Of a DNA stretch of 64,000 nucleotides, positions 45,999 through 64,000 are shown one piece after another. Each line of letters starts with the position of its first letter. The stretch's first letter is position 1. The position numbers and the translations under genes were made by a program. The DNA comes from Bacteroidaceae bacterium. Lineage in GTDB: Bacteria; Bacillota; Clostridia; TANB77; CAG-508. The stretch is from NCBI GenBank assembly GCA_963621875.1, contig CAVFFR010000001.1, positions 15,940 through 79,939 on the forward strand. The letters are read 5' to 3'. Below the pieces are notes generated by a model. It worked only from the letters and a program-made list of their open reading frames with translations, had not been told where the DNA came from and did not search any database.

Positions 45999-46121
45999 AT
46001 GAATTTTAATGATTTAGAATCAAGAGAATTGCTAGAGATATACAATAAAATTGAAGTGTTTATAGACTTCTTGAATAAAGAAGCAAAAAACGCTGAAAAA
46101 TTAGGAGAAGCAAATGAATAA
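45999..46121 (+). CDS. 40-aa helical micro-protein, translationally coupled to the next gene (ATGA overlap).
   Basis: Strong RBS taggagga. Protein MNFNDLESRELLEIYNKIEVFIDFLNKEAKNAEKLGEANE. Its stop overlaps the start at 46114. Confidence 0.3.
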   Translation: MNFNDLESRELLEIYNKIEVFIDFLNKEAKNAEKLGEANE

Positions 46122-47682
46122 AATATTAGAAAAGATTGAAACAGATAAAGAAATTTTATCTACAATGCCAACAAATAACAAAAAGAATATTGCCCACTAT
46201 ATTGCCACAGTAAAAAAATTGAGCGAAGAATATGAAAAAAGTAAGCAAGAAATTTTTAATGAGTTGGATAAAAGGTTTAAAAAAATAATATCTGTAAACG
46301 AGAATAAAGAACTAAAAACACAAAAATCAGAAATATCAGAAATAGAAAATATGCTTGAAATAATAAATCCAATAAAAACCTCATACGAAAGGATGGGGTT
46401 AGATAAGAGAGTTTATAAATTAGGCAGATTTTATAAAGAAAATTTAGAGAGCATAAATGATGAAATAGCATCTTGTATAAACAAATTTTATTCAGTAGGG
46501 ATAGATATAACTGCAAATGATTTTAATTACAGTATGTATGTAAATGAATATATGCAGATATTTTTTGATGAGATGAAAAAAGAAGGTGTAAATTCTGATA
46601 TTGTAAAAAACAAATTTGAAGAAATTTATTGGAAATGTCCAGACCTAATAATCCATATAGAACTAAACATTAGATATATTTATATAGAAAATCAAAAACA
46701 AATAGATAAATATTACGAAAAAAGAAAAACAGAACTATTAAATAATATAAATGCAAAACCAGAACAAATAGAGGAAAAATATTTATTCTTAAAACAAAAA
46801 AATAAAGAACAAGAAGAAACTGATAAATACATTTTATTACAAAAATTCTTAAACGATGAACTAGATATAAATAACTATGAAGAAGATAAAATAAAAACAG
46901 AGTATTTGAAACTAATACCAGAGAATGTTATAAAAAATGCTTCTAAAAAACAAATAGAAGAAATAACTCAAAATTCAATAAAGTTTTTAAATAGTTTACA
47001 AGAATACAAAGAGTATTTAAAATTTCAATTTATAGTTGAAAATATAAAAAATAAATATAAAGATAAGGAACAATATAAAAATCTTTATAATGCTACTCAA
47101 AAAGAAATAAATGCTAAAGAAAAAAAGATAAAAAGCTTAAATGGCAAAATGAGTAGTAAAGGTCTATTTGGTAAAAAAGACAAAAAAGATAAACAGGCAG
47201 TGGAATATAATTCTATAATATTAGAGCTAAAAGAGCTATACAAAAAATTAGATGATGCAAAAATATATTCAAAAATAATAGAACAATTAAAAGACGACTC
47301 TACAATCTATGATGCATTATATTTTGCAAGCCAATTTAATAATTTTTTGGTTGATTGTATAATAGAAAACAATAAAAATATTACACAAGAAGAAATAGAG
47401 CAATTTGTGCAAGACTTAAAAATTTTCTTAGGAAGTCCATATAATATAATTACAAAAAATATTACAATTTTAGAAGAAAAGGATATTCCAATAATAATCT
47501 CAGACAGATATAAATTATTAAATTTTATGATTAATAAAGAAGATATAACAGAATCTAATTTAGACAACTTAATTGAAATATTACAAAAAATAAAAGAATA
47601 TGATAATTTACAAAAAAGTGGATTAAATCTGGAAGAAATAAAGTTTATATGTGATTTTAAGAAGATGCTAAACAAGAAATAA
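46114..47682 (+). CDS. K/E/N/I-rich coiled-coil protein of unknown function. No signal peptide.
   Basis: 522 aa of low complexity with heptad-like periodicity. First long gene of the operon that continues into the 2777-aa protein. Confidence 0.4.
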   Translation: MNKILEKIETDKEILSTMPTNNKKNIAHYIATVKKLSEEYEKSKQEIFNELDKRFKKIISVNENKELKTQKSEISEIENMLEIINPIKTSYERMGLDKRVYKLGRFYKENLESINDEIASCINKFYSVGIDITANDFNYSMYVNEYMQIFFDEMKKEGVNSDIVKNKFEEIYWKCPDLIIHIELNIRYIYIENQKQIDKYYEKRKTELLNNINAKPEQIEEKYLFLKQKNKEQEETDKYILLQKFLNDELDINNYEEDKIKTEYLKLIPENVIKNASKKQIEEITQNSIKFLNSLQEYKEYLKFQFIVENIKNKYKDKEQYKNLYNATQKEINAKEKKIKSLNGKMSSKGLFGKKDKKDKQAVEYNSIILELKELYKKLDDAKIYSKIIEQLKDDSTIYDALYFASQFNNFLVDCIIENNKNITQEEIEQFVQDLKIFLGSPYNIITKNITILEEKDIPIIISDRYKLLNFMINKEDITESNLDNLIEILQKIKEYDNLQKSGLNLEEIKFICDFKKMLNKK

Positions 47683-47705
47683 TTGTATGGAGAAAAACAT
47701 ATAAA

Positions 47706-61631: not shown

Positions 61632-62630
61632 ATGGCTAACAATGTAATGCAAGAATATATAAAAATAATACAAGAAGAAATACTTACATATATGAAATTA
61701 ATATTTGAGAGATCCTATAATAAAAAAATTGCATTGAGATATATGGAAACATATGAAAATGTTAGATTTTATAATTTTTATAAAAAAGATGAAAAGTTAA
61801 CATTTAGAAAAAACTTCTTAAATGCTTTAGAAGAAGCGGAAATAGAAATAAAAAAACAATTTCCAGAAGAAGAAAAACTGGTAGAAAATATGAAAACATT
61901 TTATTATTATATTTTGTATTTTGACAAAATATCTTATAAAACAGATATAAAGGAAAAAATAGAAGAATTATATCAACTAAGAAAAAAACTACTAGAAAAA
62001 GACAACGAAGAATTTAAAAATATATTCTATAAAACTTTTAAGCTATATTCAGAACAAAAACAAGAATATTTAGATAAATTCTCTACTGAAGACTTTTATT
62101 TAAAAATCACAGATTATGAAAAAATGAGCGGAATCTATAAAGTAATGTTAAAATACAATATAAACATTCCAATAATATATAGTGAAAAAGCAATAGAAAC
62201 AGTATTTAATTCAGGCATAATAGAAGAAGACAAGCTATATGTTGAATATAATCTAATATCAGTAGAAGTTATATCAGACATATTAAAAGGAAACTTTAAA
62301 AAACAATATATTATAGAATTTGCTCCAACATTATTAAAGAAAAGTAAAAAAATGAAAAGCCTATTAAATATAATAGACAACTCTGCAATTCAAGACAAAA
62401 TAAACTTAACAATTAATTACGAAGATTTTTCAAAAAACAAAGAAGGTATTTATGAACTAATGAGAAATGGTTTTAAATTTGCAATAGTATTAGACAATAC
62501 ATTTAAACCAGAATATGGAAATTTTAAAAAACTAAAAATGTTTAACTATGTAATTCTAAAAAAAGACATAAACAATTATGAAAAAATATTACAAAATGAG
62601 AGCATCATCGAAAATTTAATAAAAATATAA
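61632..62630 (+). CDS. K/E-rich cytoplasmic protein of unknown function.
   Basis: 332 aa. No signal peptide. Low-complexity, helical. Tight spacing to its neighbours. Confidence 0.35.
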   Translation: MANNVMQEYIKIIQEEILTYMKLIFERSYNKKIALRYMETYENVRFYNFYKKDEKLTFRKNFLNALEEAEIEIKKQFPEEEKLVENMKTFYYYILYFDKISYKTDIKEKIEELYQLRKKLLEKDNEEFKNIFYKTFKLYSEQKQEYLDKFSTEDFYLKITDYEKMSGIYKVMLKYNINIPIIYSEKAIETVFNSGIIEEDKLYVEYNLISVEVISDILKGNFKKQYIIEFAPTLLKKSKKMKSLLNIIDNSAIQDKINLTINYEDFSKNKEGIYELMRNGFKFAIVLDNTFKPEYGNFKKLKMFNYVILKKDINNYEKILQNESIIENLIKI

Positions 62631-62645
62631 ATAAAGAGGTATAAA

Positions 62646-64000
62646 ATGGAAACTTTTACAAAATTCTTATATGAATTTCTTGGACAGTTCTTTTCTGGTA
62701 TAGGAACAATGTTTGGAGGAATAGGAAAAGGAATAAAAGAATTAGTTAATATAAAAGCTTACTCAGATATAATAAATAATTACAAGGGCGACTTTTCAAT
62801 GCCAGAATGGGCGTTGGTTGCAATAGCTGTTGGCCTAATATTATTAATATTTGTTTTGGTTGGATTACTAATATTCTTTACAATTAGAAAATACGGAAAA
62901 ATCAGAAAAAAGGCTGTTGATCAAGATGCACTACTTCAAGAAGTAGCTTCATTAAATGGACAAGTAGCAAGATTAGTAAAAGAAAAAGAAGACATATTAG
63001 CGATGAAAGTATCACAGCTTGGTCTAAGACCTAATGAGAGTGCTGAAGAAGATGCACAAGAGGATAAAAAAGAAGAAGATCCTTCAATGCAAGGTACGAG
63101 ATTTGCTAAACTTGCTACAATAGATGAGGAATTTGCAAATTACAAAATTAAAAACTATGGAAACAATTTTACATTGCCAGAGCTTTGTGAACATTTTAGA
63201 AATTTTGCAGCATCAAGACTAAGACTATTTTATACAATAGATATGATGAGATTGTTTATATCAGCATTAGCTTCTACAAAGCTAGTTATACTACAAGGTA
63301 TATCTGGAACAGGTAAAACATCACTTGCATATGCTTGGGGAAAATTTTTAAAACACGACTCGTGTATAGCATCTGTACAGCCATCTTGGAGAGATAGAAC
63401 AGAGTTATTCGGATATTTCAACGAATTTACAAAAAAATTCAATGAAACAGAAGTACTAAAAGAAATGTATATGGCAGGATATACTGATGATGTTTATACA
63501 GTAATATTAGACGAGATGAACATAGCCCGTGTTGAGTATTACTTTGCAGAAATGTTGTCAATTCTCGAAATGCCTAACAAAAATGAATGGATTATAGAAC
63601 TAGTGCCAAGTAGTTGGAAATCTGATCCAGTAAGATTAAAAGAAGGAAAACTAAAAATACCACCAAATATGTGGTATATAGGGACAATCAACAACGACGA
63701 CTCTACATTCATGGTTACAGATAAGGTTTACGATAGAGCAATGCCAATAGATATAAACGATAAAGGTAAAGTATTTGAGCCAATAGATATGCCACCATTA
63801 GATATAAATTATTCATACTTAGATAATTTATTTACAATGGCTATGCAAGAACATCAAGTTTCAGAAGATACTTTGGCTAAAATAGAACTAATGGATGACT
63901 ATACAATAAAACATTTCCGTATAGCATTTGGTAACCGTATTGTTGCACATATGAAAAAATTCGTGCCAGTATATGTAGCTTGCGGAGGAGACGAAATTGC
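62646..64000 (+). CDS. Membrane-anchored McrB-family AAA+ GTPase (partial, truncated by the window end).
   Basis: Gly-rich amphipathic N-terminus plus a TM (WALVAIAVGLILLIFVLVGLLIFF) and a coiled-coil. Walker A GISGTGKTS. McrB-type Walker B/sensor VILDEMNIARVEYYFAEMLSILE. McrB NxxD-like GTINNDDST. RBS agaggt. Confidence 0.65.
   Translation, partial: METFTKFLYEFLGQFFSGIGTMFGGIGKGIKELVNIKAYSDIINNYKGDFSMPEWALVAIAVGLILLIFVLVGLLIFFTIRKYGKIRKKAVDQDALLQEVASLNGQVARLVKEKEDILAMKVSQLGLRPNESAEEDAQEDKKEEDPSMQGTRFAKLATIDEEFANYKIKNYGNNFTLPELCEHFRNFAASRLRLFYTIDMMRLFISALASTKLVILQGISGTGKTSLAYAWGKFLKHDSCIASVQPSWRDRTELFGYFNEFTKKFNETEVLKEMYMAGYTDDVYTVILDEMNIARVEYYFAEMLSILEMPNKNEWIIELVPSSWKSDPVRLKEGKLKIPPNMWYIGTINNDDSTFMVTDKVYDRAMPIDINDKGKVFEPIDMPPLDINYSYLDNLFTMAMQEHQVSEDTLAKIELMDDYTIKHFRIAFGNRIVAHMKKFVPVYVACGGDEI

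Follow-up and report, generated by a model that had tools for sequence, protein, structure and literature searches.

A widely conserved locus of uncultured gut Bacillota combines SipW-type signal peptidases, small secreted proteins and a giant repeat protein with an McrB-like predicted GTPase

In Bacillus subtilis, tapA-sipW-tasA is a fiber locus of the TasA superfamily, and TasA itself was first described as a spore-associated protein. McrBC of Escherichia coli is a GTP-dependent restriction system, and, among degenerate EAL-domain receptors of c-di-GMP, LapD controls the retention of the giant adhesin LapA via the protease LapG and the ATPase of the type IV pilus is under the control of FimX. 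Further fiber systems of the TasA superfamily are the sipW-bsaA-bsaB-bsaC locus of C. perfringens (PMC11580942) and the archaeal ABP (PMC9245690). In many loci of this superfamily, minor subunits and tip proteins are encoded together with a dedicated SPase I, a protein accessory to it and c-di-GMP enzymes; AbpX-type clusters, too, have genes for SPase I and its accessory protein alongside those for minor subunits and tip proteins (10.64898/2026.01.04.697558).

Our analysis of a stretch of 64,000 nucleotides (the window) confirms the compact locus proposed in an initial annotation of this DNA, in which co-oriented genes encode SipW-type peptidases, a giant repeat protein, small secreted proteins and a P-loop NTPase resembling McrB. 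All of the ORFs predicted there are present on the plus strand at the positions given below, and the intergenic spacing measured, -29 to +23 nt, agrees with the range reported. The locus does not stop at the window end. The window contains only about the first two thirds of a locus of ~27 kb, and relatives carry ~6 to 7 kb more beyond it, which specify an McrC-like protein with DUF2357, a fifth peptidase of the SipW type and four further small secreted proteins; the McrC-like partner and the remainder of the locus had been missed. The gene content had been regarded as no recognized system. In every case seen, the database name of a locus protein is "hypothetical protein," and neither a description or annotation of the whole locus (literature and databases searched) nor a published link of SipW with McrB or AAA+ proteins (literature searched) was found.

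The gene set and its order are retained in 80 of the 80 related loci examined, one sample of 80 genomes from up to 580 matches in all. The same set in the same order is also found in one distant locus, whose T215 ortholog is 29% identical, and the arrangement is far beyond chance. Gene content and conservation are thereby established: the combination of SipW-type and McrB-like genes recurs, with a very wide conservation in uncultured gut bacteria that the initial annotation had not recognized. All carriers are uncultured, low-GC gut or rumen Bacillota, and the best explanation is that this self-contained locus is confined to one large clade of such bacteria with small genomes. The McrB-like protein is the most conserved component, with a median identity of 69% across the 80 species versus 32 to 51% for every other component. 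The flanking genes vary among these species and are housekeeping genes, with no recurring sporulation family among 129 flank proteins. In the genome studied here, spo0A and yabG are located immediately upstream of the locus, and in a relative with an 87% identical McrB-like protein the locus is followed by veg, sipL and yunB. In one species, anecdotally, a GGDEF cyclase adjoins the locus.

The first operon opens with o40 (45999..46121), a 40-aa ORF with an AGGAGG ribosome-binding site that overlaps the start of KE522 by 8 nt. Its product is predicted, on the basis of its sequence pattern, to be a single amphipathic helix, and an ORF of 32 to 43 aa with the pattern ELLxxYxxIxxFxxxLE is found just upstream of the KE522 ortholog in 20 of 24 loci. 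KE522 (46114..47682) is a 522-aa, K/E-rich cytoplasmic protein with no TM segment and no match in Pfam, NCBIfam, PADLOC or PDB; its orthologs, in 24 loci, adjoin the giant gene or the pseudo-peptidase gene, and it co-occurs with o40 and the giant protein.

The giant protein (47706..56039) is a 2,777-aa surface protein, rich in T, N, G and S, with an N-terminal signal-anchor (motif IIA-FRDS) and a single TM segment at residues 10 to 37. An acidic N-terminal region is followed by central repeats and by a C-terminal part that is probably beta-rich as judged by sequence. At least 16 [VI][YF]GG[GNS]N repeats lie between residues 1410 and 1830 at spacings of 24 to 32 residues, with one gap of 49. 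The protein had been described as a beta-helix protein; the 16 repeats of about 25 residues fit this description and may plausibly represent beta-helix rungs. No match was detected in Pfam, NCBIfam or PDB, and the protein resembles the small-subunit families in the signal region only. Orthologs are found in 49 loci, on either side of the core. The two operons are separated by a minus-strand gene encoding rev327 (57227..58210), a 327-aa cytoplasmic protein with a strongly conserved C-terminal half, whose orthologs in 20 loci adjoin the pseudo-peptidase or sip1 and which has no family match in Pfam, NCBIfam or PADLOC. A sigma-70-like promoter match, TTGATA-18-TATAAT, precedes rev327 at 58266-58237; the matches ahead of the operons are also only sigma-70-like and no more frequent than expected by chance.

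Four window ORFs had been proposed to be archaeal-type signal peptidase paralogs, and all four score against TIGR02228 (cut-off, 51.85 bits), but only two do so above the cut-off. The clear SipW/archaeal-type signal peptidases I are sip1 (56062..56643; 99.4 bits), with Ser61-Met, His99, a GDN motif and TM segments at its N and C termini, and sip4 (59589..60107; 68.1 bits), whose Ser, His and GD are kept by all 32 orthologs; both are predicted to be active. The SipW-like paralog sip2 (56615..57178; 43.1 bits) overlaps sip1 by 29 nt, retains Ser-Met and His with ADK in place of GDN, and occurs in only 3 loci, those of the closest relatives. The core operon begins with sip3x (58407..58940; 25.1 bits), which is present in 74 loci. 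Its product has a SipW fold and topology and aligns with active SipW families with hhalign probabilities of 97.6 to 99.0%, but neither Ser nor His occupies the catalytic columns in any of 61 orthologs. Judged by these alignments, sip3x is a catalytically dead, conserved SipW homolog. Assignment of sip3x to DUF5305 was considered and rejected, with only 1 of 32 members matching. Peptidase family and active-site status are thus established for the locus.

Seven small secreted proteins, three in the window and four just beyond it, share with the giant protein a TM segment at the N terminus, after which comes a motif of the type t-Y-A-x-[F/Y]. This unusual signal had been noted initially; it is seen in all of these proteins, and the motif is conserved in orthologs of the small secreted families. 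T215 (58955..59602; 215 aa) and T190 (60104..60676; 190 aa), the latter with a signal-anchor followed by S-K-Y-E-S, belong to a group of four paralogs with T205 and T200r, and T190 aligns with the T215 family at 96.9% in hhalign over 166 columns. T318 (60696..61610) is a 304-aa secreted core component present in 74 loci. An alternative TTG start at 60654 gives a 318-aa ORF, and the ATG at 60696, preceded by the ribosome-binding site AAAGGA, is the likely start. T318 has no match in PDB or Pfam and is related to other families only around the signal region. The T326 family has a weak TIGR04088 match, and the T257 family carries a long cytoplasmic N terminus ahead of its TM segment.

The three window proteins had been considered TasA/camelysin-like. 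None of the window proteins and 0 of 140 orthologs match Pfam Peptidase_M73/TasA, and the T326- and T318-family profiles, the two tried, retrieved no TasA-type structures from PDB. Structure prediction in this trio covered T215, whose model is a beta-sandwich after a disordered N-terminal segment; its best fold matches by two methods are the TasA fiber, ABP and cannulae, with marginal scores. The beta-sandwich of this one subunit is established, and on its model T215 is a putative fiber subunit. The proposed similarity to TasA thus finds some support in T215 and its paralog T190; T318 has no detectable relation to these past the signal region.

The second operon continues with cyt332 (61632..62630) and the McrB-like gene (62646..64000, cut by the window end). 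Both K/E-rich cytoplasmic proteins of the initial annotation, KE522 and the 332-aa cyt332, were found, but the latter contains an EAL-like domain that had been missed. It consists of an N-terminal six-helix domain and a degenerate EAL-like domain whose top structural matches are LapD and FimX; the EAL fold is established, the catalytic EAL motifs are lost, and the domain is truncated to about 180 residues, shorter than canonical EAL. This resemblance suggests a similarity to degenerate c-di-GMP receptors. The protein may not bind c-di-GMP at all, and could be a YdiV-like pure protein-binding module.

The McrB-like protein, 508 aa at full length (P0001, 100% identical; the gene would end near 64172), is a membrane-anchored AAA+ predicted GTPase. 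It harbors a TM segment at 48-84, Walker A (GISGTGKT) and Walker B (DEMN) motifs, and a GTINNDD segment that we read as the counterpart of the GTMNTAD motif of McrB. It matches McrB weakly in NCBIfam (E value, 7.9e-5) and, over the AAA+ domain, in PDB (3e-4), and matches the PADLOC model PDC-M26A with an E value of 3.6e-34. The intact Walker motifs, TM segment and McrB matches bear out its initial assignment as a membrane-anchored McrB-family NTPase. In relatives, the next gene encodes the DUF2357 McrC-like protein, which shows no detectable nuclease domain, PD-(D/E)xK motif or PADLOC match. McrB-like motifs accompanied by an McrC-like partner are thus an established feature of the locus.

The gene mix suggests a nucleotide-controlled building or holding of a Gram-positive surface fiber. 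We give about an even chance to the possibility that the locus is a TasA-superfamily fiber/adhesin system to which an EAL-like/McrBC-like module for control or as a motor has been added; the expanded, possibly NTP-driven module first proposed remains the best reading. The seven small secreted proteins and the 2,777-aa adhesin would be synthesized as precursors that have a signal-anchor and a motif of the SipW-cognate type. Three or four active SipW/archaeal-type peptidases, whose genes adjoin those of the substrates, would then cleave the precursors. The dead homolog sip3x may act as a non-cleaving partner, substrate holder or scaffold. Released beta-sandwich subunits would polymerize outside the membrane by donor-strand complementation, like TasA, ABP and cannulae. 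The resulting fiber would consist of several types of subunit and would carry or anchor the giant adhesin. On the cytoplasmic face, cyt332, a membrane-tethered ring of the McrB-like GTPase and the nuclease-less McrC-like protein would make up a module that depends on nucleotides and either gates, powers or times the assembly process or governs the retention and release of the adhesin. Polymerization, the role of the pseudo-peptidase and the coupling of the cytoplasmic module to the outside are what we infer.

The fiber/adhesin reading is supported by the synteny in 80 of 80 related loci and the distant locus, the tight spacing and the variable housekeeping flanks. It is further supported because the above-cut-off peptidases keep Ser and His, all of the secreted proteins carry a common signal, T215 matches TasA-superfamily donor-strand fibers by two methods with four paralogs in its fold family, and the McrB-like protein has a TM anchor replacing the DNA-binding domain and a DUF2357 partner without a detectable nuclease. 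The conserved dead peptidase, the giant protein's repeats and the published make-up of TasA-superfamily loci (10.64898/2026.01.04.697558) add to this support, as does, anecdotally, the GGDEF cyclase beside the locus in one species. The absence of a sequence-level link to TasA/camelysin in the orthologs searched counts against it, as does the short EAL-like domain that lacks the catalytic motifs and may not bind c-di-GMP. No known TasA-type fiber depends on an NTPase, and for rings of the McrB type the only known activity is DNA translocation, so that the proposed coupling of the two is without precedent. All organisms with the locus are uncultured.

An inside-out control like that of LapD/LapG/LapA is an unlikely alternative, in which an uncleaved signal-anchor keeps the giant adhesin on the cell and the EAL-like protein and McrBC-like ring decide from the cytoplasm whether a SipW paralog cleaves and releases it, with the pseudo-peptidase shielding the adhesin and the small proteins serving not as a pilus but as components of a matrix or anchor. 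The peptidase-type site at the N terminus of a giant adhesin, the several peptidase paralogs with a conserved dead one, and the cytoplasmic N terminus of the T257 family, as in an anchor protein, would fit this arrangement. However, cyt332 has no TM segment and no HAMP or periplasmic output domain connecting it to the outside, seven conserved small secreted proteins exceed the needs of a release switch, and coupling through an McrB-like ring would again be unprecedented.

It is also improbable that the locus specifies a sporulation-linked structure (a spore appendage, exosporium filaments or a coat-associated matrix) made during sporulation. The neighboring spo0A and yabG, the veg, sipL and yunB genes of the relative, and the history of TasA as a spore-associated protein in B. 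subtilis point in this direction, as does the frequent location of TasA-superfamily loci near Spo0A-like regulators (10.64898/2026.01.04.697558). Against this, the flanks differ across the 80 species without a recurring sporulation family, and the promoter matches are of the sigma-70-like type only, not above chance.

Similarly doubtful is the possibility that the products are non-polymerizing surface or matrix proteins (lectins, S-layer-like or wall-associated) processed by dedicated peptidases, with the cytoplasmic genes encoding regulators or chaperones for the export of a very large protein. The lack of sequence homology to TasA is consistent with this, and the co-occurrence of KE522 and o40 with the giant protein would suit a dedicated helper in its secretion. 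However, donor-strand fiber subunits rank first in two independent fold methods, the disordered segment of T215 follows its signal as donor strands do, and paralogous small subunits beside SPase I genes are the published pattern of the TasA superfamily (10.64898/2026.01.04.697558). Finally, although its AAA+ core matches a candidate-defense model (PDC-M26A) and, weakly, McrB itself, and its partner carries DUF2357, it is very improbable that the McrB-like/McrC-like pair is an anti-phage system merely sitting in an adhesin locus, given that all 80 species have it at a fixed place within the operon, 15 to 30 nt from both neighbors, a conservation unlike that of patchy defense genes, a TM anchor where a DNA-reading domain would be, and the nuclease-less partner.

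Compared with known systems, the locus resembles those of the TasA superfamily in its archaeal/SipW-type peptidase genes interleaved with those of small secreted proteins bearing a SipW-cognate-like signal, its several paralogous subunits with one large putative tip or adhesin protein, its non-catalytic SPase-associated component, its hint of a c-di-GMP linkage, and its modeled subunit, which best matches TasA, ABP and cannulae with marginal scores. Unlike them, it has no Pfam TasA/Peptidase_M73 membership by sequence, four or five peptidase paralogs rather than one, a dead SPase paralog rather than DUF5305 as accessory, no identified TapA-like protein and no LPXTG motif at the giant protein C terminus. 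Its core also includes the TM-anchored McrB-like GTPase, nuclease-less McrC-like protein and degenerate EAL protein, components that we did not find reported for this class in the literature searched. With McrB/McrC of E. coli (PDB 6UT6 and 6HZ4), the pair shares the AAA+ domain with Walker A and B and a GTxNxxD segment, a sequence similarity to the AAA+ domain of McrB that is weak but specific, and an adjacent partner with a DUF2357 (McrC N-terminal) domain. In contrast to McrBC, a conserved stretch of ~47 residues, a TM helix and a coiled coil take the place of the N-terminal DNA-binding domain, and no nuclease domain is detectable in the partner. The pair also lies within a secretion/fiber operon and is conserved together with it, at a level far higher than is usual for defense genes. 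Unlike LapD and FimX, cyt332 has no GGDEF, HAMP, PAS or TM modules and has a novel six-helix N-terminal domain instead, and its truncated EAL domain is not detected by Pfam EAL. Like them, it has an EAL fold in which the catalytic motifs are not conserved, and its gene lies beside that of a putative assembly NTPase, in a locus with a giant adhesin and proteases.

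The locus is wholly unannotated and widespread, and its most economical reading is a fibre/adhesin system of the TasA-superfamily type, in which dedicated SipW peptidases would process a set of paralogous subunits together with a giant adhesin. A rival explanation is that the secreted products are non-polymerising matrix proteins. The initial annotation had proposed an expanded, possibly NTP-driven fibre/adhesin module; the fibre/adhesin part of that proposal is partly supported by the data below, and the coupling to NTP is one that we infer.

ORF calling in the window recovered every ORF listed in the initial annotation at the same coordinates on the plus strand, and these coordinates bear out the claimed gene spacing of -29 to +23 nt. 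The GC content of the locus region is 23 to 34%. The 40-aa ORF, which had been called translationally coupled, runs 8 nt into the 522-aa gene and is preceded by an AGGAGG ribosome-binding site, and the most likely start of the 318-aa ORF (T318; 60696-61610) is the ATG at 60696, preceded by an AAAGGA site. An additional gene of 327 aa (rev327; 57227-58210, minus strand), absent from the initial annotation, lies between the two operons. Only about 20 of 82 loci carry this gene, where it adjoins the pseudo-peptidase gene or a SipW gene, and family searches gave no match; its C-terminal half is very strongly conserved, with the motifs ...NYNLHPAIITACK...LDVYLSCLE.... Promoter and terminator scans of the window gave no excess over the shuffled expectation. 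Elsewhere in the window, the stretch 36803-40130 holds a gene for a HAMP histidine kinase (36803-38293) and, after it, one for a 600-aa protein composed of WG-containing beta repeats (PF14903, E 2e-34). The highest GC content of the window (0.34 versus about 0.28) is found at 32001-34000, in a stretch that holds a 336-aa ORF (32268-33278) with no Pfam match at E<=1e-5.

The ORFs had been listed correctly, but the locus does not end at the window boundary. The last ORF, encoding the McrB-like protein (62646 to beyond 64000), is truncated there, and a 100%-identical protein has 508 aa. In relatives, including one with an 87%-identical orthologue (L003), six more genes follow: an McrC-like protein of 376 aa (DUF2357; PF09823, 43.8 bits against a cut-off of 23.3 in L003), a fifth SipW-type peptidase (sip5; TIGR02228, 83.8 bits in L003), and the small secreted proteins T205 (205 aa), T200r (200 aa, minus strand), T257 (257 aa; L003 14815-15588) and T326 (326 aa; L003 15736-16716).

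Scanning the McrB-like alignment against one genome per GTDB species gave at least 580 confirmed matches. The best 80 of these are 65 to 92% identical, and all come from uncultured gut or rumen metagenome-assembled genomes labelled Clostridia, Bacilli, Tenericutes, Mollicutes, CAG:567 or CAG:884, among them two complete chromosomes of 1.26 and 1.55 Mb. When the ORFs of the census loci were matched to the reference proteins and gene order was judged wherever the contig allowed, the arrangement was found to recur among these best 80 in the same order, namely, pseudo-peptidase, an optional T215-SipW-T190 segment, T318, cyt332, McrB-like and McrC-like, followed by SipW, T205, T200r (minus strand), T257 and T326. 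The module of the 40-aa ORF, the 522-aa gene and the giant-protein gene lies either upstream of this core, as in the window, or downstream. A distant locus also retains the full set, even though the identity of its T215 orthologue is down to 29%. Relative to the reference, the McrB-like protein has a median identity of 69% and is the most conserved gene of the set; for every other component, the median is 32 to 51%. At the place of the giant-protein operon, one close relative has an IS element (rve transposase and HTH protein; L002 3162-4525). A frameshift appears to have broken the T215 orthologue of that lineage into two ORFs, of 84 and 132 aa (L003/L004 6299-6923); these observations are consistent with the T215-SipW-T190 segment being optional.

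In the window, spo0A (43462-44277, with housekeeping genes) and yabG (45126-45935) lie upstream of the locus, and in L003 veg, sipL and yunB (16927-19506) follow directly after it. Since yabG and veg are neighbours in Bacillus subtilis, the locus appears to have been inserted between these two genes in this lineage. A second rival, a spore-surface structure, would draw on these neighbours. The flanks vary between species, consisting of ordinary housekeeping genes (129 flank proteins from 80 loci), and no recurrent sporulation family was found among those 129 proteins. The sporulation neighbours of this window are therefore not general, and the idea of a general sporulation neighbourhood was rejected; the same order within varied flanks identifies a module that is self-contained and vertically conserved. 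Of the specific neighbours, SRP54 (ffh) is the commonest in the 80 census loci: it is one of the two closest flanking genes in 4 of them, 3 of these with ylxM; this could be due to chance.

Four archaeal-type signal peptidases had been claimed for the window. All four ORFs are SipW-related, but the curated cut-off of TIGR02228 (S26B; 51.85 bits) is passed by only two, sip1 (56062-56643; 99.4 bits) and sip4 (59589-60107; 68.1 bits), with sip2 (56615-57178; 43.1 bits) and sip3x (58407-58940; 25.1 bits) below it. We located the catalytic residues, the Ser of the S-M motif and the His of the H-R motif, in a joint alignment of 166 sequences. Both are kept throughout the sip4 (32/32) and sip5 (61/61) families; in the sip1 family, Ser is found in 11 and His in 10 of 12 members. 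The sip2 sequence of the window has both as well. Neither residue occurs in any of the 61 sip3x orthologues, which also miss the GDN segment, and sip3x is thus a pseudo-peptidase and not a functional member. Its homology to SipW (hhalign, 97.6 to 99.0%) and two-TM topology are retained, and its place at the head of the conserved core marks it as a pseudo-enzyme that is maintained rather than a decaying copy. We rejected its identification as the published DUF5305 SPase accessory protein, as the weak match (E 0.024) recurs in only 1 of 32 orthologues.

The three small secreted proteins of the window had been described as TasA/camelysin-like. Membership of the Pfam TasA family fails: no window protein matches PF12389 (Peptidase_M73/TasA) at E<=1, nor does any of 140 orthologues of the seven small-protein families at E<=0.1. 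PDB profile searches with the T326 and T318 families found no TasA-type structure, and PDB sequence and profile searches with T215 (58955-59602) returned nothing useful. The window proteins give no match to TIGR04088; the T326 member of L003 has a sub-threshold match at its N-terminus (14.3 bits against a cut-off of 19, E 0.034). A search with a concatenated T318 and cyt332 query returned only two T318 homologues, the rest being crowded out by low-complexity candidates. Conserved across all seven families is a TM segment followed by a t-Y-A-x-[FY]-type motif (yAlFeS, t.s.YeS, tfgRYvy, fAWFiY, tYAKY, gG.FTv and tYAWFT). Profile-profile comparison indicated that T215, T190 (60104-60676), T205 and T200r are full-length paralogues (95 to 99.9%), that the T257 and T326 families have a common C-terminal motif, W-x-E-G-x-D-x-D-C, and that T318 stands apart from the other small families. 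In the T326 family, Y-x-W-x-E-G-Q-D-x-D-C-E-N near the C-terminus is almost invariant and is accompanied by W-E-P-N-x-x-x-H, and the W-I-E-G-D-D-P-D-C part is also present in the T257 family; this motif looks like a metal- or calcium-binding or disulphide site.

An AlphaFold2 model of T215 built from 65 homologues (pLDDT 80.5) comprises a TM helix (residues 3-32), a low-confidence segment (33-47) and a beta-sandwich of about 11 strands. The TasA fibre 8aur ranked first in a Foldseek search of the PDB (E 2.5e-3, probability 1.0, TM score 0.37), and ABP (7ueg), cannulae (9h8b) and FimG were also near the top. From this model and ranking, the TasA superfamily is the best fold-level reading of T215, although not a secure one.

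In the giant protein of 2777 aa, which has a composition rich in T, N, G and S, the single TM segment is N-terminal and precedes IIA-FRDS. The assignment of this protein to the same signal type as the small proteins stands; for the claimed beta-helix, the evidence is the repeat pattern. Residues 1410 to 1830 contain sixteen [VI][YF]GG[GNS]N motifs, 24 to 32 residues apart with one gap of 49, a spacing that would be expected of beta-helix rungs. The giant protein had no family match and no PDB match, and a TasA-like domain within it was rejected, as the small-subunit HMMs match its signal region only. Other species likewise have a conserved ORF of 32 to 43 aa and the 522-aa protein alongside the giant protein; a PDB search with the 522-aa protein gave nothing useful.

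The claim of a membrane-anchored McrB-family NTPase was upheld, with the protein as a distant relative. A conserved N-terminal segment of about 47 residues precedes a TM helix (48-84), a stretch that can be read as a coiled coil, and an AAA+ domain with the motifs GISGTGKT, DEMN and GTINNDD. Similarity to PDB McrB is weak (E 3e-4, residues 149-366 aligned to 133-350), and the match to NCBIfam PRK11331 (E 7.9e-5) has 21.6 bits where the cut-off is 637; the protein is therefore not an equivalog. At its N-terminus, where McrB has a domain that reads modified cytosine, no DNA-binding domain was matched. The AAA+ core (residues 194-316 of the full-length protein; window 63225-63593) matches the PADLOC candidate-defence model PDC-M26A with E 3.6e-34, far better than McrB, which places its closest described relatives in a candidate system that is still uncharacterised. 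The McrC-like DUF2357 partner is present in 82 of 82 loci; it had no nuclease family match, and no conserved D...(D/E)xK, sought as the PD-(D/E)xK signature, was found in its 61-sequence consensus. It is unlikely that the McrBC-like pair is a stray defence system inside the locus.

An EAL-like half in the cytoplasmic protein cyt332 (61632-62630) was first suspected by eye. Only 1 of 33 members matched Pfam EAL (PF00563; E 0.035), and two PDB profile searches found no EAL chain. An exhaustive homologue search yielded 340 clusters, all of about 320 to 335 aa, and the AlphaFold2 model from 90 of these (pLDDT 96, pTM 0.92) has the EAL (beta/alpha)-barrel fold. None of the EAL catalytic motifs (EAL/EVL, N, ExxE, DDFG, K, EGVE and Q) is conserved in the 90-sequence consensus, in which reading by eye found only LD..F at the DDFG-equivalent position, and the EAL-like domain is short, ending before the EGVE/QG region. 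The model points to a degenerate EAL protein and putative second-messenger receptor. Rfam matches were absent from the window, those to c-di-GMP riboswitches included. In one of the 80 loci only, a GGDEF cyclase of 286 aa (L063 6574-7434, minus strand; E 1.5e-15 versus PDB cyclases) lies divergently beside the pseudo-peptidase gene.

The trio of cyt332, McrB-like and McrC-like proteins may gate or power assembly or, alternatively, control adhesin retention and release in the manner of LapD. To our knowledge, fibres of the TasA superfamily (TasA, ABP, cannulae and AbpX) are seen as needing only a signal peptidase, with no chaperone or energy source, and the NTPase/EAL core of the locus is unprecedented. 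A further possibility, which we offer tentatively and consider rather improbable, is a previously undescribed class of Firmicute surface-fibre machine, in which a membrane-tethered McrBC-type AAA+ GTPase ring, read out via a degenerate EAL receptor, would act through a signal-peptidase/pseudo-peptidase complex on donor-strand subunits of the TasA superfamily and a giant adhesin, actively driving or gating their assembly, retraction or handover, as an NTP-powered counterpart of fibres deemed self-assembling. If the coupling is true, TasA-type fibres would have a mode of assembly or release that is under nucleotide control, McrBC-type rings would have a role outside DNA restriction, and a conserved dead signal peptidase would become a defined structural partner. 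More than 15 protein families now labelled "hypothetical" gain names and testable roles. Several hundred uncultured gut and rumen species with small genomes keep the locus, and because about 27 kb is a large investment for such genomes, the locus is likely central to attachment to hosts, particles or other microbes.

Loci of the TasA superfamily often encode, besides major and minor subunits, also tip proteins, SPase I together with an SPase accessory protein, and c-di-GMP enzymes (preprint 10.64898/2026.01.04.697558), a pattern that is matched by this locus (10.64898/2026.01.04.697558; PMC9245690; PMC11580942). The descriptions of such loci cited here mention no ATPase or GTPase (PMC9245690; 10.64898/2026.01.04.697558), and full-text literature searches for SipW with McrB, or for SipW with AAA+ and pilus, gave nothing relevant. 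With every family of the locus labelled "hypothetical" and no SipW-McrB link in the papers searched, the view that this is not a recognised system holds. In comparison with McrBC, the AAA+ domain is related and a DUF2357 partner is adjacent, whereas here the N-terminus is TM anchored and lacks a DNA-binding domain, and the partner is without a detectable nuclease. In comparison with known TasA-type loci, there are more peptidase paralogues and a conserved dead peptidase. The foremost difference from loci of the TasA superfamily is the invariant mid-operon trio, by which the same TasA-type building blocks are locked into one operon with a membrane-anchored McrB-like GTPase, a nuclease-less McrC-like partner and a degenerate EAL protein.
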